DNA of 64,000 bases from a virus (lineage: Duplodnaviria; Caudoviricetes). The position numbers and the translations under genes are program-made. The DNA lies in IMG/VR virus record IMGVR_UViG_3300031784_000006; one strand, given 5' to 3'. This document shows, one piece after another, positions 4,214-54,356 of this stretch; within the stretch, counting starts at the first letter, position 1, and every line of letters begins with the position of its first letter. Below the pieces are notes generated by a model. The model was not told the origin of the DNA. It did not search any database and was given only the letters and a program-made list of their open reading frames with translations.

Positions 4214-4420
4214 TTAAAAAGGTAAGTCTCTTCTTTTTACTTTATCTCTCATTGCTCTATATCTTTCATCGTGCCTAACTTCTGCTTCAATATCACCACT
4301 TTGAGATGCTTTCTTTGCCGACTTTTTAGCAGCAGTCATTTGTTTTTTAATTCTATTTTCCTTTTCTCTACTCATTCCTTGGTAGGACATTTCAAAAATA
4401 AACTCCCTAAAAGTTTTCAT
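4214..4420 (-). CDS. Small basic protein with capsid-targeting-like N-terminus
   Basis: MKTFREFIFE start; ATAAATA late promoter upstream. Confidence 0.75.
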   Translation of the reverse strand: MKTFREFIFEMSYQGMSREKENRIKKQMTAAKKSAKKASQSGDIEAEVRHDERYRAMRDKVKRRDLPF

Positions 4421-4435
4421 TTGTATTGATTATTT

Positions 4436-4954
4436 TTAGGTATTTATGATAGTCCAACCTTTTGTATTCTTACTTTTCTTTCCCAAAACCGCATCATAAG
4501 TTATTCCTATTTCCTTACAGAACTTCTTAACACCACCTTCTATAATATGTTTTTTACCCTCTGGAGAAATAAAGATATATTTTTTTGCTTTTGGATTATT
4601 TTTACCAGAAACTTTTAATGAGGTTTTCTTTTTACTTTCTTCACTATGTTTTCTACCACTAAATCCCTTCGTTTTTTGTCCTCCTGGTTTTCCTTCTCCA
4701 CCAAGATTTTGATTTAATAAAACTCCTCCATCACATTCTCTTTTCCAGAGTGCTATGTGTTTTATTTCAAGTTCTATTGCTTCTTCTTTAGTTAATCCAG
4801 ATTTTACAATCCACCTTCTTTCTCTTGATGGTAATAAATTTGCTCCATTACTCCTCAAATGTTTTGCGTGTATTCTTCTTGGTTTTCCATAACCAACATA
4901 AAAGGGAGAACTAAAGTCCTCCCTTAAGTAATAGTAAAGAATATAGTTATTCAT
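4436..4954 (-). mobile_element. Free-standing GIY-YIG homing endonuclease (Seg-like) with NUMOD3 motif
   Basis: YILYY...FYVGYG, ELEIKHI, LLN motif, GRKHSEESKKK; inserted immediately downstream of nrdB. Confidence 0.8.
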
Positions 4955-5010
4955 TTTAAGACTGAAGTTGAGTTATATTTATTTATACAACATTCAACTT
5001 CAGTCTTAAA
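4955..5010 (-). promoter_or_regulatory. 17-bp perfect inverted repeat enclosing a TATAAATA late promoter
   Basis: TTTAAGACTGAAGTTGA (4955-4971) pairs with TCAACTTCAGTCTTAAA (4994-5010); TATAAATA at 4980-4987 in the loop. Confidence 0.85.
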
Positions 5011-9441: not shown

Positions 9442-9465
9442 GACAATACATTGAGGAGTCTACTT

Positions 9466-9493
9466 ATTCTACCAGACTACTGGGTTTTGTCAA
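9466..9493 (-). promoter_or_regulatory. sigma70-like promoter TTGACA-16-TAGAAT upstream of primase
   Basis: Hexamers read directly. Confidence 0.6.
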
Positions 9494-9590: not shown

Positions 9591-9607
9591 CTTGTGCCAA
9601 CACTCAA

Positions 9608-14040: not shown

Positions 14041-15330
14041 TCAAGCACGTACTTTTTGTTTCTTATACTTATTTATGAAATTCAAGAATGCTTTACCGCC
14101 TGGTTGGATATTTTCTTTCCCAAATTTAGAACCAGGTGTTTGTTCGAATGCATATTTAAGATATCCAGCAGTTCCAACAAGCGTATTTGGTTTTCCTGGA
14201 GTTCTATACATACGATCCATCTTAACTTCAGTATATTCCATTAAATCTTTGATCCAAGACTTAAACATATAACCTTCTTCGGTTACACAAATTAAATGAT
14301 TAGTTCCTCTACGCATCACTTCACCAATCAAACCAGTATTTAAATTCTGAACTTTATCGCCAAGATTGAATATTTTTCCTCTTATATAATTTTCTCGAAG
14401 ATTTTTCATATCATACTTTGGAGCAATCTGCCATAAAGCAAAACTTTCTTTCTTGACTTTTGATTTCTTTGCTCCCATTCCTTGGCGAACGGCATTAAAA
14501 AGTGATTGAGTTTCTGCATCATCAAGTGTCTTTGGAGTTCCTCTACGAAATGATTTAAAATCATCATCTACTACAGCCTTTCTCATCTTAGATGCAGACA
14601 TTCCTTCAACACCCTCAGCATCTGCATCTCTTACACCAGCGGAAACTACACGAATTAAGTCAAAGTTATAAAGGTCCCCATTATACTTTTGAGCAAGGTT
14701 TTCAAACTCAGCTTGACGGTCAGAACCAACAACAATATTGACATTAGTATATCCATCTTCATTTGCAGTCACTAGAACATTAAAAATGGTTTTCATTTCT
14801 TCATCATTAATAATGTTCTCTTCAAATTCGGGGAACATTTTTTTCATATAAGAAACCTTAGTATTAGGATCTAAAGGATTCTTTTTAGGGTCTTGAGACC
14901 TTGAAGGGTAAATCTTAATATCTCCACCAGTAGCAATTCTCTTTGCCGACTTGAGAAGTTTTTCGTGTCCTACTGTTGGTGGATTGAAGCGACCAAACAC
15001 AACGGTAAGTGGTGGCAGTTCTTCTGCAGGTTGCTCTTCTGGTGCTTGTCCTGGTGCTGCTTGAGGTTGTGGCGCAGGTGCTTGTCCTGCTTGAGTTGGT
15101 TGTGCAGTTGGAGCAGCACCAGCGGGTTGTCTTCCTGCTGCTGGTTGTTCTGCACCTTTTGGTTTTCTTCCATCAGTAAATTTTAACTTTCCCTTTTCAG
15201 TTCTTGCAACAAGTTTACCGGAGCGGTCAATCCATCCACCATGGCCGTCCCCAGAGTATCCAAGTTTCTTCGCTTGCATTGCTGCTTGCGATTCTTTTGC
15301 TTCAGTTAGAAAATTGAGAAAACTTTTCAT
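14041..15330 (-). CDS. HxGH-family nucleotidyltransferase (cytidyltransferase-like)
   Basis: FGRFNPPTVGHEKL, VVGSDR, MSASKMR; begins MKSFLNFLTE. Confidence 0.88.
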   Translation of the reverse strand: MKSFLNFLTEAKESQAAMQAKKLGYSGDGHGGWIDRSGKLVARTEKGKLKFTDGRKPKGAEQPAAGRQPAGAAPTAQPTQAGQAPAPQPQAAPGQAPEEQPAEELPPLTVVFGRFNPPTVGHEKLLKSAKRIATGGDIKIYPSRSQDPKKNPLDPNTKVSYMKKMFPEFEENIINDEEMKTIFNVLVTANEDGYTNVNIVVGSDRQAEFENLAQKYNGDLYNFDLIRVVSAGVRDADAEGVEGMSASKMRKAVVDDDFKSFRRGTPKTLDDAETQSLFNAVRQGMGAKKSKVKKESFALWQIAPKYDMKNLRENYIRGKIFNLGDKVQNLNTGLIGEVMRRGTNHLICVTEEGYMFKSWIKDLMEYTEVKMDRMYRTPGKPNTLVGTAGYLKYAFEQTPGSKFGKENIQPGGKAFLNFINKYKKQKVRA

Positions 15331-15353
15331 ATTTCGTGTTGATATACTTATAT

Positions 15354-16490
15354 TTAGATTAAGAACATTCCTGCCTGTGCTTCCAGATAGTTTCTTGGAT
15401 AAAATCTATAGACTTTACTTCCGCCAGAAGTTCCGCTGGCAACTTCTAATTTATACCTTATCTGCATAACAAAATAATCTTTACCGCTTCTTTTCTTGCC
15501 ATTCTCGTCGGCAAGATATATTTCTATTTTAGGGTCTCCAGTTTTTTTAATTTCAACGGAATATCTATTTGAAACTAAAACATTTCTGAACTGCCTATCA
15601 GCAACTCTGGTTTTTACTTTTCCACTACCAGCAAACTTAACAAGTTCAGTTCTAACTCCCCTAGACAAACCATAGATGATATAATCGGCAAATTTTATTT
15701 TTACAGAATTTTGTCCTTCTGCATTCAAACCTTCCTGCAGAACTTTTGCTGCGTATTCATAAACTACTCTGGCACTTTTCTTTAGATTATCTCCACCACC
15801 AGTAGATTGTGCCTGCTCTCTACTTGAATATTTTTTAGTATAAACTTCAACATCAAAAAAGTCACTTAAACTCTTCTCATATGCACCTGAAACTGGAGAT
15901 ACATTTATTCCCATCTGACCGAATATATCTAAAAACTTGTCAAATCCCAATCCAGAAACTTGGTGGAACTGTTCTCCTCCAGTAACTTTTAGAGAGTAAT
16001 CAACATTTCTAAATTTTTTGTCTGGATTGGTTGGAGAGTTTACTTCAACCTTAACATCCGCCTTTGTTCCCTTCTGGTCTTCTGTTCCAGCAGCAGTTAC
16101 TTTAATAATATCTTGCCTTTCATTTATAGATAGTCCTCTCGCTTGTGCGTTAAGTCTTGAATGAGAGTTTGCAAAGTTTACTGCACCAGTTCTCAAGTCA
16201 GAAACTTTAGCCCAATTAGACCTATCCTGTAAGAAAGACAATGCTTTTTTGGGAATTGATACATTTACACTTACAGTATCAATTACCGCACTACCAACAT
16301 CGTTTACATTTTTAGTATATCCTTTTTTCATCATCTCAGTTAAAACACCATCCACATCATTGGATGATATCTTGGGGAGTACTTTTGCACTTTTTGTTTT
16401 TGCTCTTTTAACAAATCTTGCAGCAACAGCTGCAGCAAAAAATGCTTCAAACAAATCCCCTCTATTGGCGTCTATTTTTTCTGCTGCCAT
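15354..16490 (-). CDS. Hypothetical protein, possible PD-(D/E)xK nuclease fold
   Basis: RGDLFE ... TKADVKV ... DYSLK spacing; TAAATA upstream. Confidence 0.7.
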   Translation of the reverse strand: MAAEKIDANRGDLFEAFFAAAVAARFVKRAKTKSAKVLPKISSNDVDGVLTEMMKKGYTKNVNDVGSAVIDTVSVNVSIPKKALSFLQDRSNWAKVSDLRTGAVNFANSHSRLNAQARGLSINERQDIIKVTAAGTEDQKGTKADVKVEVNSPTNPDKKFRNVDYSLKVTGGEQFHQVSGLGFDKFLDIFGQMGINVSPVSGAYEKSLSDFFDVEVYTKKYSSREQAQSTGGGDNLKKSARVVYEYAAKVLQEGLNAEGQNSVKIKFADYIIYGLSRGVRTELVKFAGSGKVKTRVADRQFRNVLVSNRYSVEIKKTGDPKIEIYLADENGKKRSGKDYFVMQIRYKLEVASGTSGGSKVYRFYPRNYLEAQAGMFLI

Positions 16491-16517: not shown

Positions 16518-16590
16518 TGGAGATAAGGAGACTCGAACTCCTGACATCAGCCTTGCAAAGACCGCGCTCTACCAACTGAGCTATATCCCC
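16518..16590 (-). tRNA. trnA: tRNA-Ala(TGC)
   Basis: Acceptor GGGGATA/TATCTCC with G3:U70, anticodon arm CGGTC TT TGC AA GGCTG. Confidence 0.96.
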
Positions 16591-16660: not shown

Positions 16661-17680
16661 TCAGTCGTGCTCACCCATTGCTTTTTGCTTACGCAGTTTC
16701 TTAGGATTCTTAGTTACAGTACCAGAACCAGGTTTGTGTCCACCAGAAGTATACTCAACAGCACTATCTCTTGCATAATCTCTACTATCTTGGTCAAGTT
16801 TACCCCTACCAGATTTACCTAACATCCCAGAGTATCTTGGTTTAGTAGATTTCTTACCACGATTTCCTACATCAGGACCATTATCAATCCTACGAGTGTG
16901 CTTTTCAATTTCTTTTACTTTCTTAGTCTTTTCACCTTTCTGTGAATACTCACTTGCTGGTTTCTCACGTCTTGCGATAGCAAGTTTACCCATTGCTTGT
17001 CTTGCTTTAGGTGTCTGTCCGTATGAACCTTCTGCTTCAAGGATTGCATCGATGTCTTCAGCATCCAATTCATTTGCCATAATCCACTCTGCTTCTTCCA
17101 GAGTTTCTGCGTATCCTTCTACTTGGAGGAACTCAAGGACAATATCAAAGATATCAAAATCTTCTTCGAGTTGATTTCCTTGTGGTTCGTATGACATAGT
17201 TAATCCGCCCTTTAGAGTTGCTTTAAGGGGAGTTCCAGAACCACCATGAGAAAATTCTCTACTTCTAGGTTGTGGTTTTATTGCAGCAGAACCTGCTGAT
17301 GATTTTGCTGCTGGTTTAGCTCCATGGGTCAATTCAGAACCTCTCATGCCAGCAGCATTTTGCGCTGACCTCTGCGATGCCATTGCCGATTTAATTCTAC
17401 CGAGAGTTGGTTCTTCGTCAATCTTCCCAACCTCTTCATGCGTCATACCAACAACTGAAGGTCTTGTTTTTTTAGTAACCTTATCGTAGAACTTAATATC
17501 TCTTTCCATTTTATCAGCATTTGCTTTTCCTGCTGATGGAGAAAGACGCTTATCTCCACGCTTTCTTTCGCGAGACGCTTCTCTTCTTTCTCCAGTATCT
17601 TGTCCCTTTACTGCTTCATCAACAGATACATGAACCTGCTGATAAGCTTCAAATAAACCTCTAAGTTCTCTGGTATCCAT
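16661..17680 (-). CDS. Late hypothetical protein, EAY / EGYA cassette family (copy B)
   Basis: MDTRELRGLFEAY..., VLEFLQVEGYAETLEEAEWIMAN; TATAAATA at 17702-17709. Confidence 0.85.
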   Translation of the reverse strand: MDTRELRGLFEAYQQVHVSVDEAVKGQDTGERREASRERKRGDKRLSPSAGKANADKMERDIKFYDKVTKKTRPSVVGMTHEEVGKIDEEPTLGRIKSAMASQRSAQNAAGMRGSELTHGAKPAAKSSAGSAAIKPQPRSREFSHGGSGTPLKATLKGGLTMSYEPQGNQLEEDFDIFDIVLEFLQVEGYAETLEEAEWIMANELDAEDIDAILEAEGSYGQTPKARQAMGKLAIARREKPASEYSQKGEKTKKVKEIEKHTRRIDNGPDVGNRGKKSTKPRYSGMLGKSGRGKLDQDSRDYARDSAVEYTSGGHKPGSGTVTKNPKKLRKQKAMGEHD

Positions 17681-18315: not shown

Positions 18316-19692
18316 TCAGAATTTAAATCCTTCGAATGATTTTTTAGGTTTCTTTTCTTCATAATCATACTCTTCATCCTTTCCATTGTCAAGGATATCT
18401 TGTTGAGCAGATTGTTCGCAATCATAAAGACGCATCTTAGCACGGTCAATACCAACAACAAAACGTTTATGAATGGTAGGATCATTATAACGATTCTTAA
18501 GTTGCTTGACTAGAATCTGACCAAGACCTTCCAAATCTTCTGTAGAAATCAATGCAAACATCAAGTCAGCAGTTGCAGGAAGACCGAAAGACTCTGAAGT
18601 ATCAGTTAGTTCAACATCAGAAGAACCATAACCACTACGAGTAGTTTGAGTAGCACTGACGATTGGAACATTAAACTCCACAGCAAGACCACGAAGTTCT
18701 TCTGCAATTGCTTTTACAAAGGTATAAGAGTTAATGTTACTATTCCCTTTATATCGGGAGGAAGCACAGATATTTAAGTAATCTACAAAAATAATATCGG
18801 GTTTAAATGATTTTTTAAGAGAAAGTTCATTTAATAAAGACTTAAAATGCCCAGAATGAGCAGATGCAGTCGGATACTCCTTAATAATTAAGGTCCCTTG
18901 TGTTTTCTTTGAAAGGTTGGTTACCTTGTTTTCAAACATCTGCTTTGACAAATTAGTGATGTCCTGAATAGGAACATTCAGGAGGTTTGCATCAATTCTT
19001 TCAGCAATGCGTTCTTCTGCCATTTCCAACGTAATGTACAGAACGTTCCGCCCTTGGAGCAAGACGGAGCTAGCCACATGGCACATGAATAGAGATTTGC
19101 CGACGCCCGTACCAGCAAGAGCGATGTTAAGAGTTTTGTTAGGGAGACCACCTTTCGTGATTTTGTTAAAGTATTCAAGATCAAATTCAATTTTATCCTC
19201 CTTTTTGTGATAAGACTCATATCTTTGTTCATAATCTTGCAGGTAATCATGACCTACGTGGTTATCAAAACTTACAGCAAGGGCATCAGAAAGAATAGAA
19301 GGGATACTATCGCGATTTTTGTTTTCATCATTACCATCAGCAATATGAATCGATTCCATCAGAGCAATATAAATTGCCCTATCCCTACACCATTTTTCAG
19401 TGGTATTGACTAACCATTGAAATTCAGTAGGTACACTTTCCAAACAAGAAATTAAATGAACAATCTCCTTAAAAGATTGCTCATTAATGTCTGTTCTTTT
19501 CTCCACCTCAATACAAAGAACTTCTTTGGTTGCTGGTTGATTGTATTCTTGAACGAAAGATAGTATTTCATCAAATACTATTCTTTGATTTTGATCTTCA
19601 AAATATTCAGATTTAATAAAGGGTATTACTTTTCTAATATATTCTTCATTATGTAACAGGTTTCTAAGAATTAGAAACTCAACCTTCTCCAT
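18316..19692 (-). CDS. gp41: Replicative helicase
   Basis: Walker A AGTGVGKS, IFVDYLN, SATQTTR. Confidence 0.97.
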   Translation of the reverse strand: MEKVEFLILRNLLHNEEYIRKVIPFIKSEYFEDQNQRIVFDEILSFVQEYNQPATKEVLCIEVEKRTDINEQSFKEIVHLISCLESVPTEFQWLVNTTEKWCRDRAIYIALMESIHIADGNDENKNRDSIPSILSDALAVSFDNHVGHDYLQDYEQRYESYHKKEDKIEFDLEYFNKITKGGLPNKTLNIALAGTGVGKSLFMCHVASSVLLQGRNVLYITLEMAEERIAERIDANLLNVPIQDITNLSKQMFENKVTNLSKKTQGTLIIKEYPTASAHSGHFKSLLNELSLKKSFKPDIIFVDYLNICASSRYKGNSNINSYTFVKAIAEELRGLAVEFNVPIVSATQTTRSGYGSSDVELTDTSESFGLPATADLMFALISTEDLEGLGQILVKQLKNRYNDPTIHKRFVVGIDRAKMRLYDCEQSAQQDILDNGKDEEYDYEEKKPKKSFEGFKF

Positions 19693-29914: not shown

Positions 29915-30083
29915 TCTTGAGTTCTTTTAGGTACTCCTCACTGGCAATATGTCCGGTATAACCTGGGTAATATTTTTTTACAAGTGCAGGAATGCCCATA
30001 GCAGTTGTACTACTATTACACTTAATCCATATTTCTTTAGTGTCGTATTTTACTACGTGTTCAAATGGAAATTTAGTCTTCAT
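29898..30083 (-). CDS. Small hypothetical protein
   Basis: MKTKFPFEHVVKYDTKEIWIKCNSSTTAMGIPALVKKYYPGY... Confidence 0.65.
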   Translation of the reverse strand: MKTKFPFEHVVKYDTKEIWIKCNSSTTAMGIPALVKKYYPGYTGHIASEEYLKELKNQLAN

Positions 30084-30582
30084 AAGTAAATGTTTTGTTT
30101 TTAACTTTTGTATCGAATTCACCAGTTCTACCTGGTTTCATTTTACCAACTTTAACACGCTTACCTTCTCCAGGCCAAGACTTATTAGTTCCAACAAGTT
30201 GAGCACCACCTTTTGGTTTCTTTTGAATTAAAACAGAATCTTGATTATATTTCTTACCAAGTTTAGTGATTGCTTTCTTAAAAGTTCTTTTACCCTTTTT
30301 ACCAGAAGAAATTACGTGTGATTTCTCACCAACTTTCTTCTCTTGAGGAGTTCCTGGGTTTTCGGTATATCTTCCAGAAACTTTAGTAGGTCCCGGAAGA
30401 CCAGCACCTCTAATGTCTTTCTCTAGTTGCTTAGAACGAGACTTATTTTCCGTCTTTGACTTATCACCTCTTTGGGCAGACATAATTGCCATGCCACCTT
30501 TTTGTGATTTTGAGCGAACTCTATTCAAAGAGGTTTCTTGAATAGAGCAGCACTCTACCATAAATTCTTGGAATGTCTTCAT
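30073..30582 (-). CDS. Putative S-adenosylmethionine lyase (T3 SAMase-like) with capsid-targeting N-terminus
   Basis: IMSAQR...ENKSRSKQL...GRYTE...GEKSHVI...LGKKYNQDSVLI matches the T3 SAMase pattern VSAFR...VNMSRHRHM...GCYRE...EEKTVRV...LACNEWEQDCVLV (recalled, not searched). Confidence 0.72.
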   Translation of the reverse strand: MKTFQEFMVECCSIQETSLNRVRSKSQKGGMAIMSAQRGDKSKTENKSRSKQLEKDIRGAGLPGPTKVSGRYTENPGTPQEKKVGEKSHVISSGKKGKRTFKKAITKLGKKYNQDSVLIQKKPKGGAQLVGTNKSWPGEGKRVKVGKMKPGRTGEFDTKVKNKTFTYED

Positions 30583-32847: not shown

Positions 32848-33300
32848 TTATGCAGGTGGAAGTTTTACTGGATTTGGACCCGTCATTTTGTTATAAATTT
32901 TTTGTGCTCTAGGGTCTTTTAATGTTTGTCCCTTATTCCAAGTTTTGTTATCAGATGGACTATCTGTTGGACCACCAGTCATTTGCTCAACAATACTCTG
33001 TCTCCACTCTTCACTCATATTTGCCATAATAGCAAGAGCTGCCTTGTTGGTATCAGCATATCCTTCGGCAACTAGGTATTCTAACAGATAATCAAAGAGA
33101 TCAACCTCTTCTTCCACAGGAGATGATGGTTTATTAACTCTTAGTCCAGGAACTTGTTTTGCTTTCTTTTCAGTTTCAAAATTTGGAATTCTATCATTTT
33201 GTGTAGTAGTAGCAACTTTAACTTCATCAAGTTTTTCTTTAACTTGTGAGTACATAGAAGCATATGCTTCCATTATCTCTCTAACTTCTTTTGCTTTCAT
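32848..33300 (-). CDS. Late hypothetical protein, EAY / EGYA-MSEEW cassette family (copy C)
   Basis: MKAKEVREIMEAY..., LLEYLVAEGYADTNKAALAIMANMSEEW; TATAAATA at 33321-33328. Confidence 0.85.
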   Translation of the reverse strand: MKAKEVREIMEAYASMYSQVKEKLDEVKVATTTQNDRIPNFETEKKAKQVPGLRVNKPSSPVEEEVDLFDYLLEYLVAEGYADTNKAALAIMANMSEEWRQSIVEQMTGGPTDSPSDNKTWNKGQTLKDPRAQKIYNKMTGPNPVKLPPA

Positions 33301-40025: not shown

Positions 40026-41453
40026 TCACATAAGGTTCTTAACAGCAACTCTTCTGTAGTAGCGGTTGGTGTTAACGTTGAGTCTACCCTCACCTCTGCT
40101 GAGACCCTCAGCGAATGGGTTAGCAACAAGACCATAACGAGTCTTGAAGCCAATCTTGGGCTGGAAGGTGTCTTCGCCAACGGCACGCACCATCTGGAGA
40201 GGAACGTAAGGGCAATAGAACAGACCTGCATCATAAGGTGAAGAACCCTTATAACCAACAACGTAGTACTGGTTACCAGGAGTTGCATTACCTGCAGTCA
40301 GGTTTGCTGAATATGGGTCAATGTATACGCGGAACTTGCCCATCAGAGTACCAGCAAAGGTGTTGCCAGTATCATCAACGTTCAGGTTAGCGTTTAGTGC
40401 AGGGGTGTAATCAAGAACACCAGCCATGGTTAGTGCTGAAGCAACGTCAGCAGAACACATGATGATGTTGCCCTTTCCGCGACGAGTTCTTTGTGCGATT
40501 GCGTTAGCGTCGCGCTCGATTTGGAACAGAAGACCCTTGAACTTCTCAACAGACCAACGACCGTTTGAATCAACGTCGAGGTCGAATACGCCAGCGGTAG
40601 CAACGTTTTGTGCTGCACCCTTTTCAGCGGTCATGTAGATGGTACGAATAACTTCGCGGTTGATTTCAGCAAGAATCTCAGTTGAGAGAATGTTTGCTAA
40701 TTCCGCTTCAGCATTCAGACCGTGGATTGCCTTGAGGTCTTGAGCGAGCTCGAGTGAGTACTCAGCCTTCAGGGCGCGTGACTTTGCAGTAACAGTAACT
40801 TTCTCGATTGAGAAAGCCATCTGGTTGAACTGGTTACCTGCAGCATCGCCAAGTGCTTCTGAATCGCCAGTTGGCATACCTTGACCGACGTTATAATCGG
40901 TAGCAGCAACTGAAGCAGCGTTCAGAAGAGCTGGGTTACTACCAGACTGTGCGGTAGTACCAATACCAGAACCTACTTGCGAATGAGCGCCAGTAAGAGT
41001 GGTATCGAAACCTGAGTCTGTACCAGAGAATGCAGTATCTACTTCATTGAAGAAGGTTTCTGCACCACTCTGATTGGTGTAGCGGGAGCGCATTGCGAAG
41101 ATGAGTCCAGTAGGACCACTCATTGGTTGAACGCCAGCGAGGTCATAAGCGACCAGGTTAGGCATTGAACGACGAATAAGTGAGATCAGAACTGGATCGA
41201 AACCAGCAACGCTTTGGCTACCACCACTACCAAAAGCGCCGCTAGCGCCAGCGGCATTGCCACTGTTGGTTGGTGATTCCATGAGCATACTCATGGAGCC
41301 ATTGTCGAAAGCAGATTGCTCTCTAACAAATCTTTCTTGGTTTTCGAGCAGGACAGCGGTTACGGCTCTACGATGAGAATCTTTGATTGGATCAAGACCC
41401 TGATAGTCTAAGAGGGGTGCCCACTTTTCCTGCAGATGCTCGGATTGGAACAT
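40026..41453 (-). CDS. gp23: Major capsid protein
   Basis: LQEKWAPLL, GVQPMSGPTGLIFAMR, SRALKAEY, FYCPYVPL, FKTRYG. Confidence 0.99.
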   Translation of the reverse strand: MFQSEHLQEKWAPLLDYQGLDPIKDSHRRAVTAVLLENQERFVREQSAFDNGSMSMLMESPTNSGNAAGASGAFGSGGSQSVAGFDPVLISLIRRSMPNLVAYDLAGVQPMSGPTGLIFAMRSRYTNQSGAETFFNEVDTAFSGTDSGFDTTLTGAHSQVGSGIGTTAQSGSNPALLNAASVAATDYNVGQGMPTGDSEALGDAAGNQFNQMAFSIEKVTVTAKSRALKAEYSLELAQDLKAIHGLNAEAELANILSTEILAEINREVIRTIYMTAEKGAAQNVATAGVFDLDVDSNGRWSVEKFKGLLFQIERDANAIAQRTRRGKGNIIMCSADVASALTMAGVLDYTPALNANLNVDDTGNTFAGTLMGKFRVYIDPYSANLTAGNATPGNQYYVVGYKGSSPYDAGLFYCPYVPLQMVRAVGEDTFQPKIGFKTRYGLVANPFAEGLSRGEGRLNVNTNRYYRRVAVKNLM

Positions 41454-41511: not shown

Positions 41512-42681
41512 TTATTTGCTGAATGCTGAAAGAGTCTTCAGATATGCAGCCATTGAACCTGAAATTAATTCGGGTGCATTGTCTACACCTTCTGACAGAG
41601 ATTCAGTTTTAGCTGAAGGAGAAATTACTCTTGAAGGGAAATATGATTCCTTCAAAGTCTCCAGTTTTTCACGATATTCTTCTTCACTTTCAAACTCAAC
41701 ACTTTCGGCAAGTGAAGCGAGCTTGTCCTTCTGAGTGTCTGCAAGACCTTCAGCGACTTGATCAAAGATTCCATCAGCAACCGACTCTGCGAGACGCTTG
41801 TTAAGGGAAACGTTTTTCTCGATTTGCTCGTTGAGTTTTGTCTCCATTTCATCAAGTTTTTCTACCATGCTCTCAAGCACATCATATTTATCTTCAGGGA
41901 TTGATACATAATGTTCTTCAAAAAGACCTCTCATTCCTTGGAGGAATGATTCGGTCATCTCGGTCTTAAGACCTTGTTCGATAACGAGTGCATTTTCTTC
42001 CATCCACTCGCCAGCAACATACTCAAGGTATGCATCTACACGCTCAGAAAGTGCTTCTTTAATTTCTTCAACTTCTTCTGCAAGTGCAACTGCATACTGC
42101 TCTTCAAGTGCTTCTTGAATAGAAGCAACTTTTGAACGAAGAGCAGCCTCGAAGATGGTGCGTGCTTTCTCTTGGAATTCCTCAGAAAGCTCTTCACCTT
42201 CAAGAAGAGCATTGACATCTTCCTCAATATCAAACTCTTCTTTTACGTCCTCTTCTTCTTCGTCCTCTTCTTCTTCGTTCTCTTCTTCTTTCTTTGCCTT
42301 TTTCTTAGGTGCTTCTTCCTCTTCTTCAGCAGCCTCTTCGATTACATCTTCATCACTCTCTTCTTCAATCATATCCTCATTATCAAGTTCTTCTTCCTCT
42401 TTATGAAGACCCTTCATTGGATCAGCAGAACCTGCGCCTTTATTTACAACATCTCTAACTTGCTTGAGTGTTGCTCCAGGAGTTTTCAGTTTTGCTGAAT
42501 CATCCGTTGAACGATAGTTTGAAGGATCAGGTCCACCAAGATCTTCCCAACCTGCAGTTTGGCCGTCAGGAATACCTGTAGTTAGTTTTGACATCGGATC
42601 CGCCGCTTTAGCATTTGCATTAACAGCGGTTCTGGATGGTTTAGTGCCTACTTCCATTTCTTGTAAATCTCCACGAGACAT
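41512..42681 (-). CDS. gp22: Prohead core scaffolding protein
   Basis: Acidic coiled coil, LSEEFQEKARTIFEAA, LFEEHY; position between gp21 and gp23. Confidence 0.93.
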   Translation of the reverse strand: MSRGDLQEMEVGTKPSRTAVNANAKAADPMSKLTTGIPDGQTAGWEDLGGPDPSNYRSTDDSAKLKTPGATLKQVRDVVNKGAGSADPMKGLHKEEEELDNEDMIEEESDEDVIEEAAEEEEEAPKKKAKKEEENEEEEDEEEEDVKEEFDIEEDVNALLEGEELSEEFQEKARTIFEAALRSKVASIQEALEEQYAVALAEEVEEIKEALSERVDAYLEYVAGEWMEENALVIEQGLKTEMTESFLQGMRGLFEEHYVSIPEDKYDVLESMVEKLDEMETKLNEQIEKNVSLNKRLAESVADGIFDQVAEGLADTQKDKLASLAESVEFESEEEYREKLETLKESYFPSRVISPSAKTESLSEGVDNAPELISGSMAAYLKTLSAFSK

Positions 42682-42737: not shown

Positions 42738-43388
42738 TTACAATGAGTTTAAAAACTCATTGAATAATGATAACTTATATTCTTCAAGAATACCTTGGTC
42801 TACAAGGGTATTAATTTTATTCTTAGTATTTTCTGCCATTTTTTCTCTAAGGATGCCACCATCCCAAATCCACTCCTTTCCTTCCATAATTCCCTGAACA
42901 AATGCGTCGGGAGCTGAGGGATCTGCTACAATATCAGCAGCAGTTGCAAGCATAAAGTCTTCACCAACTTCTTTATATCCCTTATTATTCTCTCTTAAAG
43001 ACCCAATACCACGAGAAGAAACGCCAAGAGTTACTCCATCTTTAAGAAGAGACTCCGCAATCTTACCCATTGGTGTGGATAAAATTTGTGCCTTTCCGAT
43101 AAAGTTATTTCCGCTGCGATAAAGTTCTGTAATTTTATGAGAAACTCTATCTAAATTAACAGTAGGTCCGTCTGGATGTCCTAGTTCGCCAAGAGCACGT
43201 CCCTTTTGAACGTATTGTTCGTTATAACGATTTACTTCACGTTCCATAATCTGCATAGGATACATTCTTCCATTGCGATTCACGCATTCTGCTTGCAAGA
43301 ATGGTCCTTTAATGTAGAGTTTTGCTTGCTTACCAGTTCCTTCGGTAATAACCTCTACTCTTTCGATTTCTTCTCTAATTAGTTTCAT
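42738..43388 (-). CDS. gp21: Prohead protease
   Basis: NRNGRMY, GELGHP, GVSSRGIGS, DIVADPSAPDA. Confidence 0.97.
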   Translation of the reverse strand: MKLIREEIERVEVITEGTGKQAKLYIKGPFLQAECVNRNGRMYPMQIMEREVNRYNEQYVQKGRALGELGHPDGPTVNLDRVSHKITELYRSGNNFIGKAQILSTPMGKIAESLLKDGVTLGVSSRGIGSLRENNKGYKEVGEDFMLATAADIVADPSAPDAFVQGIMEGKEWIWDGGILREKMAENTKNKINTLVDQGILEEYKLSLFNEFLNSL

Positions 43389-43993: not shown

Positions 43994-45268
43994 TTACCTC
44001 TGTTCAATCCAGTTCAGAACTGCAAGTGCTGCTTTGTTAGTATTAGGACTTGCACAAGCAAGAGTATAAGTATCACTAATTGTTCCAATACCACTTCTAC
44101 CTAACTGAAGTGCCGCTTTATCATCAAGATTAACTAGAGACCCACCACCACCAATCACAAAACCACTCAAAAGATCAGTTCCACCAGATACTGCAGTTTG
44201 AGTAATATTGTACTGCATAAAGGAGTTTGGGTCTGGATGGTCTACCCAAGTTCCTCCAGTTAGTGTTGCATTTTCTAAAAGTTGCCAATAAACATTAGTA
44301 TTATCATCAGTTGCTGCTTGCAATGATCTCAAAAGCATCACCGCACCTAGATTACTAGATTTTAGACGAATGCTTATAATTGGATAAAATGTATTTGCAT
44401 TTGCCATCGTTGTCCCTGCGATGGTATTTGATATACTCTCAAGAGTTCCAAGTTTCTCTGGTTCTCCTTCTTGAATCAGAGAATTAGAACCCTGATACAT
44501 GTAATGAGTTCCTGCAACACCTGTTACATTTTCTATCTCAAGTCTAATTGGTAAGAATGGAGTAGAACACCACACTCCTGGATTTGTATTTGAGTTCTCA
44601 AAAGTATGGGATGCAATGGTCTCATTCTTCATCAACCAATTGAACTGAACCATTCCTGCACCATACCATTCATAATTGATGGAAATCATTTGTTGTTTTG
44701 TTGGGTCTGCAGTCACTCCAGTCCAACCATTTCCATCAAACTTTTCACCATTCCAATCATCTCTGTATACTCTGGTTTCTGTAACAATTCCAGTTACACT
44801 ACTACGGAGTACATAAGAATATGTTCCCCCATTATCCTCAAAATAAACACCGTTGTTTTCATCAAACAATCCAAATCTTCTGCGAATACCTACCTGTGGA
44901 TTATCAAGACGAATCGCAAATGCAAGAGTTGCACCTCTACCGGGAATGTATCTCATCACATTCTTGGTTTGGCGAACAACTTTACTTCCAAGAGTGGACC
45001 CAACTTGCATCACAATATTACTGGCATTTGCATTAAATGTTGCAGTTCCAACTCCAACTACTCTTTCATCCCATACATCAGTCTCTTTACCATACTGGAA
45101 AGTGTTAAAGAATACTGTTTGATATGGAGATATTTTAAATCTGTTGTTGTTGGTAAATTGAGGTCTCCAGTCAGTCTGGTTTCCCCAGTGATCTGCAATA
45201 TTATAAACTTCAAAGAGACTTCTCTCTTGATTTAGAAAGTCTTGTGTAGTCTTATTCCACTGAGCCAT
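43994..45268 (-). CDS. Putative virion structural protein (beta-sandwich/lectin-like)
   Basis: RQTK..RYIPG, RRFGLFDENNGVYFE, WYGAG motifs. Confidence 0.7.
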   Translation of the reverse strand: MAQWNKTTQDFLNQERSLFEVYNIADHWGNQTDWRPQFTNNNRFKISPYQTVFFNTFQYGKETDVWDERVVGVGTATFNANASNIVMQVGSTLGSKVVRQTKNVMRYIPGRGATLAFAIRLDNPQVGIRRRFGLFDENNGVYFEDNGGTYSYVLRSSVTGIVTETRVYRDDWNGEKFDGNGWTGVTADPTKQQMISINYEWYGAGMVQFNWLMKNETIASHTFENSNTNPGVWCSTPFLPIRLEIENVTGVAGTHYMYQGSNSLIQEGEPEKLGTLESISNTIAGTTMANANTFYPIISIRLKSSNLGAVMLLRSLQAATDDNTNVYWQLLENATLTGGTWVDHPDPNSFMQYNITQTAVSGGTDLLSGFVIGGGGSLVNLDDKAALQLGRSGIGTISDTYTLACASPNTNKAALAVLNWIEQR

Positions 45269-45270: not shown

Positions 45271-45591
45271 TTAATCAATCCATTCCAACTTTGATGGGTG
45301 GTATCTTTTTGCGTTTCTAATATTGAAATTCTTTTCAGTTACGGGATAAATCTGATGAACGACTGCTCCTGGATAATCTCCCTGAAGTTGTTCTCCTAAA
45401 TCTCTTTTAGATGGAATTCCACTTTTAGTAACCAATTCCATCCTATACAAACTTCCTTGCCACAAAACATCCGCAACATACTCTTCTCCAACCTGTTGTG
45501 GTGTTTCTGGTTGGGAGTTAATGTAAAGATTTCCGTTAAAGTCTCCGGAAATATTTACTGATTCTGAGATGAATTGTTTGAAGGATTTCAT
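45271..45591 (-). CDS. Hypothetical protein with capsid-targeting-like N-terminus
   Basis: MKSFKQFISE start. Confidence 0.8.
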   Translation of the reverse strand: MKSFKQFISESVNISGDFNGNLYINSQPETPQQVGEEYVADVLWQGSLYRMELVTKSGIPSKRDLGEQLQGDYPGAVVHQIYPVTEKNFNIRNAKRYHPSKLEWID

Positions 45592-45749
45592 TCTTCCTCT
45601 TCTGGTTCGCTATTAAACATCGAATTTGCTACTTCAGGTTTAAATTCATCAACTTTTTCTGCAGCTTTAGCAAACAAAAGGTCTTTGATTTTATCGCTAA
45701 TCTGCGAAGGTGATTCTTCAGCAGCAATCATATCCATTAAATCATCCAT
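45588..45749 (-). CDS. Small acidic prohead core protein (gp67-like by position)
   Basis: MDDLMDMIAAEESPSQISDKIKDLLFAKAAEKVDEFKPEVA...; directly after the portal gene. Confidence 0.65.
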   Translation of the reverse strand: MDDLMDMIAAEESPSQISDKIKDLLFAKAAEKVDEFKPEVANSMFNSEPEEEE

Positions 45750-45780
45750 TGTTATAAATGTAATCAGTAATCGTTTTTAT

Positions 45781-47478
45781 TTATATCTCCCCACCCTTAG
45801 GCATTTCTGCTATTTTTCCACTTGCTTCAACTGATTTTCCTTGAGAGTCTATATTTGGTTCCATCACTGGTTGCCCCAAATCCATTTGAGAAGTTTGTTG
45901 CCCTGGTTCTAGTGGCATACCTGTCATAGGATCTACAGGTATACTGGGGTCTGGAATAACTCCATCCTTAATTTCTTTTTTAATAATTTTGTCTTGCTCT
46001 AAAATTTCTTCATCAGTTTGACGAAGAATCTTACGTCTAACGTAATCTTGAGAGAAATATTTTCCAACATATGGTTCAGCAATTTGTACCATACCCAATC
46101 TTTCATTTAGCAACTCTGCATCTTTAAGTTCTGCAAAATGATTATCATACAAGAAGTCATATTGAATGTGTTCGTCCATTCTATTCCAATCTTCTGGGGT
46201 AATGATATTTTTTAGGATCAATTGAGTCCTCAACATATCACTAAACATATAAGAAAATCTCTTCCTCAGACGAGCAACAAATTTGCTGAATTTAACTTCA
46301 TCGCGAAGAATCTCTGATGATCTTCCAAGATTAAACCCACCATCTCCACCAATTCTTGTTGTAGGTACATTTAAAGATCTATAAAGTTTTTCTTGGAAAT
46401 AATTAATGTCAGTAATCTCTCCAAGGTTTTGTCCGCCAGGAAGTGTTGATATTTCAGTACCTCTTCCACCTTCTCTTCTTGGAAGCCAAAAATCCTCAAG
46501 CATTGCCATGAATTTTTTATCATCACGAATCTCACCAGTGCTTGCATCATATACCAACTTGTTACGATAACGCATCATAACATCGCGGAGATATTGTTCT
46601 GCTTTTACTTTAGGTAGATTGCCTACATCAATGTAGAAAATTCTTCTTTCTGGTGCGCGTGATAGTCTGTAGATAACAAGTGAATCTTCAATCATACGAA
46701 GTTGATTGAGAGATTTGATTGCCTTATGGAGATATGAAAGCGTTGAACCCTTATTTCTATCAACGAGTCCTGAAGTACAATATGCCACAGAATCTTTTGT
46801 CATTTTGATTCCTGCATTAGAACCTCCAAGAGCTCCAGGTGCTGGAGTTCCTGTTGGATATGTCATTTTTGGTTGATAGATAAAATATTCTTCAATTTCG
46901 GGAAAATCGAAATCCATTGGATTATCGACATTTCTATTTGAAATTTTTAATCTATCATTTTCTTTCTTTTTTGCTTGGCGTACATAACGCATTTTCATTG
47001 CGTCAATATATCTCAATTCTTGTATACCAGCCTCTGGATTTTTAAAATCTATTACTTTGTGGTAGTATAATCTACCATCAATATACCAATTTCTGTAGAT
47101 TTCGTGTGCTTTTTTATCAAAATCTAGAAGTTCTAAAATATATTTAAATTCTTCTCTAATTTTTTTCTTAATGCCATCACTAGCATTTAAATTGTCCAAA
47201 TCAATTTGAACAGGACTATCATTACTATCCGATACGATAGCTTCATTTACAATATCTTCAATGGCACTATCACACTCTGGGTGAAGCGCCATTTCACGAT
47301 ATCTTTTAATTAAATCGAATTCTGTTCTATAAACACCTTCAATATCTACATACGAACCAAAAAATCCACTAGTTAAATAATGGTCTACCCCGTCCTCCTT
47401 ATTGGGAGGAACGGGGGACATTACACTTTGCGATAATGGTTCATTATCTTCAATAGAAAAACCAAAAAGTTTTGCCAT
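45781..47478 (-). CDS. gp20: Portal protein
   Basis: WYIDGRLYY, IYRLSRAPERRIFYIDVGNLP, EDFWLPRR. Confidence 0.98.
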   Translation of the reverse strand: MAKLFGFSIEDNEPLSQSVMSPVPPNKEDGVDHYLTSGFFGSYVDIEGVYRTEFDLIKRYREMALHPECDSAIEDIVNEAIVSDSNDSPVQIDLDNLNASDGIKKKIREEFKYILELLDFDKKAHEIYRNWYIDGRLYYHKVIDFKNPEAGIQELRYIDAMKMRYVRQAKKKENDRLKISNRNVDNPMDFDFPEIEEYFIYQPKMTYPTGTPAPGALGGSNAGIKMTKDSVAYCTSGLVDRNKGSTLSYLHKAIKSLNQLRMIEDSLVIYRLSRAPERRIFYIDVGNLPKVKAEQYLRDVMMRYRNKLVYDASTGEIRDDKKFMAMLEDFWLPRREGGRGTEISTLPGGQNLGEITDINYFQEKLYRSLNVPTTRIGGDGGFNLGRSSEILRDEVKFSKFVARLRKRFSYMFSDMLRTQLILKNIITPEDWNRMDEHIQYDFLYDNHFAELKDAELLNERLGMVQIAEPYVGKYFSQDYVRRKILRQTDEEILEQDKIIKKEIKDGVIPDPSIPVDPMTGMPLEPGQQTSQMDLGQPVMEPNIDSQGKSVEASGKIAEMPKGGEI

Positions 47479-50380: not shown

Positions 50381-50463
50381 GTTTTTCTCCGTAATCTCAG
50401 TTAACTAAAAATTATTTATTAAAAACTTACTTTACGTGGGAGGAAACACGACGTGAATAGCAA

Positions 50464-50694
50464 TCACCAGTCAGGATAATCAAACTCAGATGAATTCTTT
50501 ATCGATTTTCTACCTTCAGATATTCTTTTTATGGTACATTCTTTGCATTCATACGAATATGAGGATGCAACTGGGCCCCTATCTTTACGAGTTCTATAAA
50601 ATTCTCCAATTAAATTTTTAATTTCGCCACAAACTCTACATTTTCTATCTGTTAGTAAAAGATGACCTAATCTTATCTGCTTATCTAGTTCCAT
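50464..50694 (-). CDS. Small zinc-finger protein
   Basis: CRVC...CKEC; start MELDK. Confidence 0.65.
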   Translation of the reverse strand: MELDKQIRLGHLLLTDRKCRVCGEIKNLIGEFYRTRKDRGPVASSYSYECKECTIKRISEGRKSIKNSSEFDYPDW

Positions 50695-52340: not shown

Positions 52341-52356
52341 AATAAAAACCTACTTA

Positions 52357-54204
52357 TTAGTTACAATTCCAACGGCGAAGTGCTTTATTAATATTGCTAT
52401 CTGGATCTCTTGCAGTTTCTGCAGAAGTTAGTTTTGATTTCATTCCTTTCATTCGACGACAAAATGAAGCACGACGTTTCGCTCTTTTTCCTTCTGGATT
52501 TTTTTCAGTTACTGCAGTTTGAAGTTTTGAACCGGGGTTCTCTCTACGATATGCTTTAACTGCCGCTGAACTTAATCCATCAGTTTTATCTTTACGGTTG
52601 ACTGATTGCCAATCTTCACCAATTTCAACTTCTTCTCCCATTGTCTTTACATAATTCTTATTTGAACCTAACTTTGCGGAACTGCCGCCCTGGGAACTAA
52701 AAGTTTGAATAAGTGGTTGTCCTGGTTGAATTTCAGAAACCGAATGGTATACGACTATTGAACCTGGATAAACTTTTTGAATCTCATCGTTGATTTCTTT
52801 TCTGGAAGGTGTCTTTACTTGTGGGAAGAACATCTTGAGAGAATAATATTTTCCTCTCCATGAAAGAGTTACCGCGATGACATTTCCAGTCTGTGCTTGC
52901 AGTCTTGTTGCTTCGCTCATTTGAGATTTAAAACCTTTGATTGGTTCTGGTTTGATTACGTCAACTACTTCCGCAAAAGTATTTCCGTTTAAGTCTTCTA
53001 TTGTTTGTTCTGGCACACAATTTGGAACTGTTTTTTTGCCCTTTTTCTTCATTCCAACTTGCTTATATCCGGACCAACACGCCTCATCAACTTCACTTTC
53101 TCCGCCATCAAGATAGTCTGCTGCAGTATCAATATAGTCTGCTGCTTTAGTGATTTTTGACTGAACCCATGCCTCTAAATTACCTTCACCTTTTCCAACT
53201 TTTGCTCGCAATCTTTTTACGGCATTTTCGATAGTTTGAAGTTCGCCGCGAACCATTGAATATTCTTCATCTTTTGATTCGGGTATAGTAGGCATAGTTA
53301 TATTATAGTCTTTTTTTCCAGAAACCACTTCTGAAGGTAATGAAAACATATCCCAGTATTTTTGTCCGTATTTACACTCATCTCTAGACTCAACTTTTTC
53401 GCATTTAGGACAATATCTTCCTGGATTTTCTCTAATTGGTCCATCCCACTCATAATTTAAAGCATCCGTACTTTCTGATTTAGTTCCCCAGTTGTCAGCA
53501 CCAACCTTACGGCATTTAACCAAAGCACCTGATGCATACGCACTTGGCCAAACACTATATCTAGACTTTACTTTATGGTAGCAAGCATCTTTAGTTCCGC
53601 TACCTTTACCTTTTTTATCTTTTGCTTCTTGTATATCCATTTCTTCTTTGATTTTCTTTCTAGGTGAATCTGTAGAAACATAAGTTGGTTTTGCAGCACC
53701 TGATTTCTCTTGTTGACCAGAATCTGCTACCTTTTTTCTTCTTGATGCGGAACGTCTTTCTGCAGGAGTCATGCTTGCTCTTTTAGAAGAAGACACACAT
53801 TTTGGAACTCCTTCTCCCTGTTCATCACTTGCACATGTTCCACCTGTAACTACATTTACCCAACCAGATTTACCATCCTTTGATTTTGATTTACCAAACC
53901 AATCGCGAAGACCCTCTTCTTTTACAGTATCTTCATATGCAATTCTTTTTTTGCTATGTTCAATTTCTCCTTTTTGCTTAGCAATCAATTTCCTTGACCA
54001 AGCGCCAACATTAATATCTTTTGGATTTTCATCTGGCATTCTCTTTTTGGGATTGTCGAAAACATCGACATCACCATCAGCATCACGATCAACATATTGA
54101 ACAGCAGCGTGATGCACTAACTGTTTAAGATCAAGATTAGGATCTAACTGATGTTGTTTTGCCTTTAAATGTGGCGTTTTGTGGGAAAATTTTGGATATT
54201 TCAT
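52357..54204 (-). CDS. Modular basic protein with Cys-containing mini-domains, inserted between gp16 and gp17
   Basis: 615 aa; modules such as GLRDWF, SAYASGALVKCR, EACWSGY, FCRRMKG..RRWNC. Confidence 0.85.
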   Translation of the reverse strand: MKYPKFSHKTPHLKAKQHQLDPNLDLKQLVHHAAVQYVDRDADGDVDVFDNPKKRMPDENPKDINVGAWSRKLIAKQKGEIEHSKKRIAYEDTVKEEGLRDWFGKSKSKDGKSGWVNVVTGGTCASDEQGEGVPKCVSSSKRASMTPAERRSASRRKKVADSGQQEKSGAAKPTYVSTDSPRKKIKEEMDIQEAKDKKGKGSGTKDACYHKVKSRYSVWPSAYASGALVKCRKVGADNWGTKSESTDALNYEWDGPIRENPGRYCPKCEKVESRDECKYGQKYWDMFSLPSEVVSGKKDYNITMPTIPESKDEEYSMVRGELQTIENAVKRLRAKVGKGEGNLEAWVQSKITKAADYIDTAADYLDGGESEVDEACWSGYKQVGMKKKGKKTVPNCVPEQTIEDLNGNTFAEVVDVIKPEPIKGFKSQMSEATRLQAQTGNVIAVTLSWRGKYYSLKMFFPQVKTPSRKEINDEIQKVYPGSIVVYHSVSEIQPGQPLIQTFSSQGGSSAKLGSNKNYVKTMGEEVEIGEDWQSVNRKDKTDGLSSAAVKAYRRENPGSKLQTAVTEKNPEGKRAKRRASFCRRMKGMKSKLTSAETARDPDSNINKALRRWNCN

Positions 54205-54356
54205 TCAACTGGTTTTGATTTAGTCTCCTCACCTTTTGCTCTTTTCTTTCTCGCCGCACAGTGAGCACGTTGAGAAAATCCTTTTGGACTAGAGCAATCA
54301 ATACTCTTTTTATATTTATCGCTCCAGTCTTCTTGAAACTGTTTAAATGTCTTCAT
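54201..54356 (-). CDS. Small basic protein (51 aa) with capsid-targeting-like N-terminus
   Basis: Manually translated MKTFKQFQEDWSDKYKKSIDCSSPKGFSQRAHCAARKKR...*; not in the ORF track. Confidence 0.75.
   Translation of the reverse strand: MKTFKQFQEDWSDKYKKSIDCSSPKGFSQRAHCAARKKRAKGEETKSKPVE

Follow-up and report, generated by a model that had tools for sequence, protein, structure and literature searches.

A six-frame translation of the whole 64-kb stretch of DNA analysed here (the window) contains the motif MK[TS]F exactly five times, and every copy opens a minus-strand ORF that has just 3–25 open codons 5′ of its start. These tagged ORFs start at positions 4420 (MKTFREFIFE, 68 aa), 15330 (MKSFLNFLTE, 429 aa), 30582 (MKTFQEFMVE, 169 aa), 45591 (MKSFKQFISE, 106 aa) and 54356 (MKTFKQFQED, 51 aa). 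The first-pass annotation had described five scattered ORFs with this start and bodies unrelated to one another. Both parts of that description hold, as BLASTP of the five proteins minus their first 10 residues gave a best pair of only E = 0.07. With the amino-acid composition of the window, 2e-4 tagged genes would be expected by chance among the 78 called genes as against the five observed, and 20,000 residue shuffles yielded a mean of 1e-4 tagged genes and a maximum of 1. The codons of the tag vary between copies (Ser as AGT or TCC, Phe as TTT or TTC, Lys as AAA or AAG, Glu as GAA or GAG). Because synonymous codons differ at the kept residues, the tag is conserved as protein and not as DNA; the same differences rule out a DNA repeat or recombination site.

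The 68-, 429-, 169- and 106-aa proteins all carry, at the very N-terminus, an aromatic residue at position 4, Phe7, an aliphatic residue at position 8 and Glu10, the pattern of the capsid targeting sequence (CTS) of T4. In contrast to these four, the 51-aa ORF has Q8, E9 and D10. Its inclusion in the original set of five therefore stands as regards the MK[TS]F start and not as regards the remainder of the tag, which is noncanonical.

Enzymes and small proteins behind the tag

The 169-aa ORF (30073..30582, minus strand) is assigned by profile homology, at the level of the family, to the SAM lyases of the T3 SAMase/Svi3-3 type. It matches Pfam PF23780, the family that it has in common with the T3 SAM lyase (gp0.3; PDB 7OCK and 8BB1) and Svi3-3 (6ZM9), over residues 33–168 with 62 bits (cut-off 28), and the enzyme domain begins at about residue 14. 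A phmmer search with the protein itself found no match among PDB sequences and the SAM lyases were reached by the family profile only, at E = 5.6e-4 for the T3 enzyme and 0.17 for Svi3-3, with no other entry at E ≤ 1. Among 50 relatives R38, E86 and Q114 are invariant and Y72, E74, D115 and S116 near-invariant, whilst the blocks G-x-Y-x-E, E-x-S and Q-D/E-S-V align to both T3 SAMase and Svi3-3. ORF6 of cyanophage S-CREM2 is 55% identical over 169 residues and has the N-terminus MKDFDSFLEE. Within the family the tag is found at the extreme N-terminus even where 100–200 other residues precede the enzyme domain, and many relatives have no tag. The T3 SAMase belongs to the early gene products and appears once the DNA has entered the cell. 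The 169-aa protein differs in that it bears a tag for head targeting and its gene has a late-promoter-like element, a combination under which it would be pre-made and delivered.

The 429-aa ORF (14041..15330, minus strand) is, again at family level and on homology, an NMNAT-like cytidylyltransferase. The tag (residues 1–10) is followed by a shared module of roughly 50 aa, a P/Q-rich linker, an HxGH nucleotidyltransferase domain at about residues 107–300, with the motif GRFNPPTVGH, and a C-terminal domain. The protein matches the cytidyltransferase family PHROG 395 at E = 4.6e-105; its score against Pfam PF01467 (17.5 bits) is under the cut-off of 21, and phmmer against PDB sequences returned nothing at E ≤ 0.1. 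At 43–60% identity it aligns along almost its whole length with orthologues in P-SSM2, P-SSM4 and Syn9, which are annotated as cytidyltransferases, and with that of S-SM2. Moreover, the tag is retained in the orthologues of S-SM2, P-SSM2, P-SSM4, Syn9, S-SCSM1 and S-SM1. No temporal class is given for this family (Ortholog_68) in the available part of the PMC7238727 supplements. Two enzymes had been proposed among the tagged proteins, and at family level both are confirmed.

The remaining proteins are short. The 68-aa basic protein (4214..4420, minus strand) bears a canonical tag and is predicted to be a small internal (IP-like) protein; 16/16 homologues begin MK[TS][FY]xxF[IV]xE and continue with MSYQ. 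The 106-aa protein (45271..45591, minus strand; phrog_1742) is encoded in the head module by the second gene after the portal gene. It has 1277 homologues, and the tag is kept in all 120 of them that were listed; in public assemblies the protein is encoded on contigs of up to 210 kb. Across these 120 and the 16 homologues of the 68-aa protein, M1, K2, [ST]3, [FY]4, F7, [ILVM]8 and E10 are kept, whilst positions 5, 6 and 9 are variable. By tblastn (E ≤ 1e-3) neither the 68-aa nor the 106-aa protein has a homologue in T4, S-SM2, S-PM2, Syn9, P-SSM2, P-SSM4, GD1 or S-CREM2. The orthologue of the 106-aa protein in S-SCSM1, gp030, is 79% identical and starts MKTFKQFMSE; the S-SCSM1 record annotates it as hypothetical, without the virion flag borne by its neighbours, which counts against packaging. 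For the 106-aa protein, a Foldseek search of the PDB with an AF2 model (pLDDT 73.6) gave no match at E ≤ 0.001. Its top entries, T7 Gp2 and YkzG at E about 0.3, are too weak for use, and a search of the Atlas returned solely unnamed viral clusters.

The 51-aa ORF (54201..54356, minus strand) is basic and contains Cys. The small terminase gene lies on one side of it and genes running up to the large terminase gene on the other. It matches the C-terminal 40 aa of SSM2_108 of S-SM2 at 80% identity. In that protein the counterpart of its tag is an internal stretch, RKTFEEFRES, and the N-terminus has a tag of its own, MKTLKQFLKE. Membership of the 51-aa ORF in the tagged set is therefore doubtful on sequence grounds. 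Several of the tagged proteins are small, basic and of low complexity.

Prohead genes and the capsid targeting sequence of T4

From its gene content the window is assigned to a T4-like cyanomyovirus with gp20, a gp21 protease, a gp22 scaffold and gp23. The gp21-type prohead maturation protease (42738..43388, minus strand) matches phrog_207 at E = 4.6e-81, is 45% identical to T4 gp21 and is the presumed enzyme of tag removal. By analogy with T4, the tag presumably docks on the gp22-type prohead scaffolding core protein (41512..42681, minus strand), which matches phrog_237 at E = 1.1e-108 and T4 gene 22 by tblastn. A complex prediction for gp22 residues 150–389 and the 106-aa protein, run without controls, scored 0.00 and neither supports nor opposes binding. 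The major capsid protein gp23 (40026..41453, minus strand; phrog_138) is 36% identical to its T4 counterpart. A candidate protease site lies in its N-terminal propeptide between ...SMLME and SPTNS; by eye it coincides with the place at which T4 gp23 is cleaved, between ...GSFLTE and AEIGG. A 53-aa acidic protein (45588..45749, minus strand; phrog_14164/2088) is encoded between the portal gene, which it follows directly, and the 106-aa gene, whose start overlaps its stop. The T4 gene order is 20-67-68-21, and by position and composition the 53-aa protein appears to resemble the prohead core protein gp67.

Late-promoter-like elements, assigned as such by a short consensus alone, lie on the minus strand upstream of three of the tagged genes: ATAAATA (4441–4447) and CTAAATA (15351–15357), each 27 nt before the start codons of the 68-aa and cytidylyltransferase genes respectively, and CTAAATA (30617–30623), 41 nt before that of the SAM lyase. 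Another ATAAATA (45778–45784, minus strand) precedes the 53-aa gene, in the operon of the 106-aa gene. The window holds 58 copies of xTAAATA on the coding strand vs 13 on the opposite strand, and the element also precedes the scaffold, portal and sheath genes. This agrees with the first-pass annotation, which had placed TAAATA just upstream of the 68-, 429- and 169-aa genes and the 106- and 51-aa genes within late operons; the gene neighbours of these last two show that they lie in structural operons.

The N-terminus of both ipII and ipIII, read from the T4 genome, is MKTYQEFIAE. In the T4 CTS residues 4 and 7 serve targeting and residues 8 and 10 processing, which is stopped by Asp at position 10; the CTS is experimentally necessary and sufficient for packaging, and foreign proteins fused to it reach the host interior (Mullaney and Black 1996, via PMC9026906). 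IPI, IPII and IPIII of T4 have the same decapeptide pattern as the proteins described here, M-K-T/S-F/Y-x-x-F-aliphatic-x-E, ahead of unrelated bodies. The gp21 protease and the gp22 core are present in both phages, the constrained positions 4, 7, 8 and 10 match, positions 5, 6 and 9 vary here as in T4 mutagenesis, and small basic bodies are also among the putative cargos here. However, homology to IPI, IPII or IPIII is absent from all five bodies, the tagged genes are spread across 50 kb rather than clustered, and two of the putative cargos are metabolic enzymes. For an enzyme as cargo the parallel is Alt of T4, an ADP-ribosyltransferase that is injected and acts at once on the host. The N-terminal propeptide of this head-loaded enzyme, MELITELFDE, likewise ends in aliphatic-x-Glu, and the Alt termini are processed by gp21 (PMC9026906), although its leader sequence and chemistry differ from those of the tagged proteins.

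Tagged proteins in the virions and genomes of relatives

Two of the five proteins, the SAM hydrolase and the NMNAT-like cytidylyltransferase, have homologues that bear the same tag and were detected by mass spectrometry in purified virions of S-CREM2, S-SCSM1 and S-SM1. In S-CREM2, where 52 of about 221 ORFs were detected in virions (PMC10665884, Table 3), a pattern set before the genome was seen had three matches genome-wide, all of them in virions (3/3; P about 0.012). A relaxed pattern gave 5/5 (a SAM hydrolase, a kinase, a cytidylyltransferase and two hypotheticals), a figure that is partly circular since this pattern was composed after seeing the S-CREM2 N-termini. The SAM hydrolase (ORF6) was represented by 19 unique peptides and the kinase by 21 (PMC10665884). 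The cytidylyltransferase of S-SM1 (MKKFSAFLNE) is the sole pattern match in that genome and was seen in virions with 25 counts (PMC3037559); the NMNAT of S-SCSM1 (ORF91, MKSFLQFLKE) was likewise found in virions (PMC9602691). Syn9 gp184 has the tag MKKFSAFLSE, yet it gave zero peptides in an older Syn9 virion study; the older Syn9 and S-PM2 virion studies also overlooked several true structural proteins.

Enzymes recur in cyanophage virion proteomes (NMNAT-like cytidylyltransferase, SAM hydrolase, kinases), and the authors are undecided whether these are packaged or contaminants, the co-purification of abundant non-structural proteins with virions being raised in two of the papers (PMC10665884, PMC9602691). 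Neither a CTS nor a packaging mechanism is mentioned in PMC10665884, PMC9602691 or PMC3037559, and our literature search found cyanophage virion enzymes nowhere tied to a CTS. Where those papers leave contamination possible, the reading of the tag as a CTS at the N-termini of these enzymes supplies a packaging mechanism, together with a simple sequence rule that would predict which proteins a T4-like phage brings into the cell. The first-pass annotation had proposed a portable tag that recruits diverse cargo into the prohead, a reading open to refutation had tagged proteins not been enriched in virions. The S-CREM2, S-SM1 and S-SCSM1 proteomes point the other way and, with the identity to the T4 CTS and the prohead genes of the window, lend this proposal support.

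The genome-wide scan for the tag was carried out on ten complete relatives and IMG/VR, in place of the whole genome from which the window derives. The strict pattern of the first-pass annotation had zero matches in S-PM2 and S-CREM2, and in each of Syn9, P-SSM4 and S-SM1 the cytidylyltransferase was the sole match. Therefore, the number of tagged genes varies widely among cyanomyoviruses. In a sample of tag matches from IMG/VR, 78/84 were ORF starts, and 73/80 tagged loci have further genes in common with T4-like genomes. The tagged cargo families there include cytidylyltransferase, DUF6267, P-loop kinases, 2H phosphoesterase/Acb1-like proteins, GNAT, 2OG oxygenase and HiPIP.

Probable packaging and delivery, and a possible wider set of cargos

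Taken together, these data make it likely that the canonical tags at least, those of the 68-, 429-, 169- and 106-aa proteins, are T4-type CTSs that take their proteins along a route from loading to delivery. The CTS mechanism is known from T4; its extension to cyanophages is new. On the T4 model the tagged proteins would be made late, alongside the head proteins, and residues 1–10, by way of the aromatic residue 4 and Phe7, would dock each precursor on the gp22-based core during prohead assembly. The gp21 protease would then cleave behind Glu10 of the aliphatic-x-Glu motif, leaving the mature cargo free in the head to exit with the DNA upon infection. The tagged proteins are thus probably carried in the particle and delivered to the cell with the DNA.

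An alternative that we consider unlikely is that the tag does load the prohead but that its bearers are assembly or core components, degraded or inert, rather than an active payload. The 106-aa gene does occupy the head-module spot of T4 core genes 67 and 68, the composition of the small tagged proteins would suit such a role, and the S-SCSM1 orthologue of the 106-aa protein is without a mature-virion flag. However, an assembly role is inconceivable for the two enzymes, and the unique peptides of the SAM hydrolase and kinase in mature S-CREM2 virions (19 and 21) show that these proteins are not degraded to small fragments. Moreover, T4 does deliver CTS-fused foreign proteins into its host (PMC9026906).

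Less probable still is that the N-terminus serves translation start, stability or the binding of a host factor, and that detection in virions is carry-over of abundant late proteins. Besides the co-purification raised in both proteome papers, T4 gene 61.1 would fit this explanation, as it encodes the tag MKTFKEFIKE in the early/middle region, adjoining the primase gene, and has no known virion role. Against it, the motif is the T4 signal that is necessary and sufficient for packaging (PMC9026906), and the kept positions are those for targeting and cleavage. The codon differences between copies disfavour an mRNA-level signal, the tag is almost restricted to T4-like phages with the gp21/gp22 system, and in three independent proteomes it marks the few non-structural proteins detected. 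Lastly, coincidence, or a recombination scar in the DNA without protein function, is suggested as the source of the repeat by nothing beyond the shortness of the motif, and can be dismissed given five tagged genes where 2e-4 are expected, the differing synonymous codons at conserved residues and the conservation of the tag through hundreds of homologues.

Returning to the tag as a CTS, we tentatively hypothesise that it may be a general zip code of marine and lake T4-like phages, such that sequence alone would list an injected arsenal consisting largely of pre-made enzymes of counter-defence and take-over. If so, these enzymes would act ahead of any phage gene expression. Speculatively, early destruction of SAM by the SAM lyase would counter SAM-dependent restriction or BREX-type systems, and NAD-related chemistry by the NMNAT-like enzyme would counter NAD-depleting defences. 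Acb1-like 2H phosphoesterases would counter cyclic-nucleotide signalling, kinases would also belong to the arsenal, and the 106-aa protein, whose close relatives in ocean metagenomes number over a thousand, would act as an abundant injected effector. Tests could then reach into the first minutes of infection by globally abundant cyanophages, for example to ask which defences or SAM and NAD pools are hit before transcription. Moreover, natural variants of the tag are gained for the loading of foreign proteins into T4-like heads.

N-terminal tags and the T4 capsid targeting sequence

Six-frame translation of the window yields exactly five occurrences of MK[TS]F, all of which open a minus-strand ORF: MKTFREFIFE at 4420 (68 aa), MKSFLNFLTE at 15330 (429 aa), MKTFQEFMVE at 30582 (169 aa), MKSFKQFISE at 45591 (106 aa) and MKTFKQFQED at 54356 (51 aa). 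Given the window's own residue composition, only 2e-4 tagged genes would be expected among 78. The first-pass annotation had described five dispersed ORFs with unrelated bodies and both points are confirmed, as no two of the proteins are alike without their first ten residues (best E 0.07). Identical tag residues often carry different codons (Ser AGT vs TCC); therefore the repeat is a protein-level feature and a DNA repeat is ruled out. The 51-aa ORF is a weak member of the set, its tag departing from the others at Q8, E9 and D10. The last 40 residues of S-SM2 SSM2_108 are 80% identical to this ORF; there the matching tag-like stretch lies within the protein, whose N-terminus bears a tag of its own.

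The window (37% G+C, nearly all genes on the minus strand) finds its best DNA matches in the T4-like cyanomyoviruses S-SM2, Bellamy and S-SCSM1, with ~77% identity across the head and replication modules. It encodes homologues of the T4 gp20 portal (45781-47478), gp21 prohead protease (42738-43388, 45% identical to T4 gp21), gp22 scaffold (41512-42681) and gp23 major capsid protein (40026-41453), and both terminase subunits, again clear T4 homologues. Eleven tRNA genes (Arg, Gln, Thr, His, Met, Ser, Ile, Glu, Asp, Lys, Arg) form a minus-strand cluster at 243-1512, and a single tRNA-Ala gene lies on the same strand at 16518-16590; several of the ORFs listed there are tRNA genes read as protein.

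Applied to the T4 genome as a control, this pattern matched ipII and ipIII, both starting MKTYQEFIAE, and by sequence the window motif appears to be their capsid targeting sequence (CTS). Foreign proteins are loaded into the T4 head when they carry just the ten N-terminal residues of IPIII, with CTS residues 4 and 7 serving targeting and 8 and 10 processing by the gp21 protease (PMC9026906). In the families of the 106-aa protein (120 homologues) and the 68-aa protein (16 homologues), M1, K2, S/T3, F/Y4, F7, I/L/V/M8 and E10 are kept and positions 5, 6 and 9 vary freely; the constrained positions coincide with those of the T4 CTS. By analogy with T4, tagged precursors would dock on the scaffolding core and be cleaved after Glu10, and the cargo would be set free within the head and leave together with the DNA. 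What an individual cargo does once delivered is speculative.

Tagged proteins in virions of relatives

The CTS and its use for diverse cargo by T4 relatives are established for T-even phages (PMC9026906). In the literature searched, "capsid targeting sequence" and cyanophage occur together only in that T4 review, "capsid targeting" and "virion proteome" together in no paper, and the virion proteome papers leave the packaging of the tagged enzymes unexplained. The earlier proposal that the tag recruits diverse cargo into the prohead would be contradicted by tagged proteins not enriched in virions. We examined this on relatives with published virion proteomes, and tag-bearing homologues were detected in virions of S-CREM2, S-SM1 and S-SCSM1.

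For S-CREM2 (175 kb, 221 annotated features in GenBank), 52 proteins were detected in virions (PMC10665884, Table 3). A pattern fixed before this genome was seen matches three ORFs in the whole genome (a SAM hydrolase, an APH/ChoK-like kinase and a cytidylyltransferase), and 3/3 were detected (P ~0.012). A relaxed pattern gives 5/5, a result that is partly circular because the pattern was written after the N-termini were seen. In S-SM1 the sole match is a cytidylyltransferase (MKKFSAFLNE), found in virions with 25 counts (Sullivan et al., PMC3037559 Table S8), and the tagged, NMNAT-like ORF91 of S-SCSM1 was likewise detected (PMC9602691). In S-SCSM1, however, the 106-aa protein has an orthologue that carries no virion-protein flag, and the tagged Syn9 gp184 was not detected in virions in an older, less sensitive study.

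Two further tag-like stretches were observed. S-CREM2 (OR473000.1) ORF12 (10313-7704, minus), a virion-detected Cas9-like nuclease, has a tag-like LRFASFMAE 17 residues past its annotated start; either the start was mis-called or the tag works when not strictly N-terminal. In T4 (NC_000866), the 54-aa gene 61.1 (18966-19130) starts MKTFKEFIKE and adjoins the primase gene. This near-perfect CTS lies in an early/middle region, which cautions against predicting virion proteins from the tag by itself.

Cargo, gene setting and portability

The 169-aa protein is a predicted SAM lyase, scoring 62 bits against Pfam PF23780 (cut-off 28). Searched against all PDB sequences, a profile of 50 relatives found T3 SAM lyase (7OCK/8BB1, E 5.6e-4) and Svi3-3 (6ZM9, E 0.17), and nothing beyond these. 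The 429-aa protein is a member of the cyanophage cytidyltransferases (PHROG 395, E 4.6e-105) and contains the HxGH motif GRFNPPTVGH; its Pfam match falls below threshold. The 68-aa protein resembles T4 internal proteins in being small and basic, and the 106-aa protein has >1200 relatives in metagenomes and no recognisable fold.

TAAATA lies upstream of three tagged genes where the first-pass annotation placed it (4441-4447, 15351-15357 and 30617-30623), and the 106-aa and 51-aa genes are inside structural operons. Window-wide, the coding (minus) strand has 58 copies of TAAATA vs 13 on the other, and the element lies 18-63 nt upstream of 26/71 minus-strand genes, a distribution that fits the core of a T4-like late promoter. 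The 106-aa gene (45271-45591) comes after the genes for the portal and a gp67-like protein, whereas its S-SCSM1 orthologue (44215-44535, 79% identical) is flanked on both sides by genes for virion proteins and lies a short way upstream of the large terminase gene. The orthologues occupy different late operons, and the gene moves as a cassette.

Among 966 representatives of the SAM lyase family (E <= 1e-3), homology to the 169-aa protein starts at its residue 13-14. Many of these relatives are without the tag; longer ones carry it at the extreme N-terminus, followed by 100-200 other residues and then the enzyme domain. Six tagged ORFs (6388, 20162, 25612, 26111, 26618 and 53022) are present in Paraglaciecola Antarctic GD virus 1 (MW805361.1), a T4-like phage whose host is a heterotroph; among them are a SAM lyase homologue (MKTFSEFLGE) and a protein whose H-x-T motifs are like those of 2H phosphoesterases (MKTYNQFILE...HATIVYS). 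The tag was found in at least 119 IMG/VR stretches. At the 80 loci among the matches listed, 78/84 tag matches are ORF starts and 73 loci have other genes in common with T4-like genomes; their cargo includes cytidylyltransferases, DUF6267, P-loop kinases, a 2H phosphoesterase/Acb1-like protein, a GNAT, a 2OG oxygenase and a HiPIP.

Related modules and a second leader

Directly behind the tag of the 429-aa protein lies a ~50-residue stretch (residues 11-60, window 15150-15300, ...AKKLGYSGDGHGGWIDRSGKLVARTEKGKLKF) that is a second portable module. It is found again in S-CREM2 ORF12 and ORF14, where it follows the tag in the virion kinase and lies near the N-terminus of the virion Cas9-like nuclease, and it occurs in some, not all, tagged IMG/VR cytidylyltransferases. 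In SSM2_108 (91376-91804) and IMG/VR locus L094 (3265-3621) the tag is followed by TPTNSVGNGGYTS...VAGYD, which resembles the window's gp23 behind its presumed cleavage site (SPTNSGNAAG...VAGFD); these are free-standing proteins that mimic the N-terminus of the capsid protein.

Lastly, three further late-looking minus-strand genes (3771-4175, 16661-17680 and 32848-33300) have another N-terminal leader in common (MDAQDFRSLQE|AY, MDTRELRGLFE|AY and MKAKEVREIME|AY), terminating in aliphatic-x-Glu, the pattern of a prohead protease site. They are preceded by near-identical sequence (TATAAATA.CTAAAAAGT.TT.GTAAAA), their products share an internal acidic module (D.FD..L..L..EGYAET.E.A..IM.N), and they may be a second class of proteins that belong to the head core or are carried as cargo.
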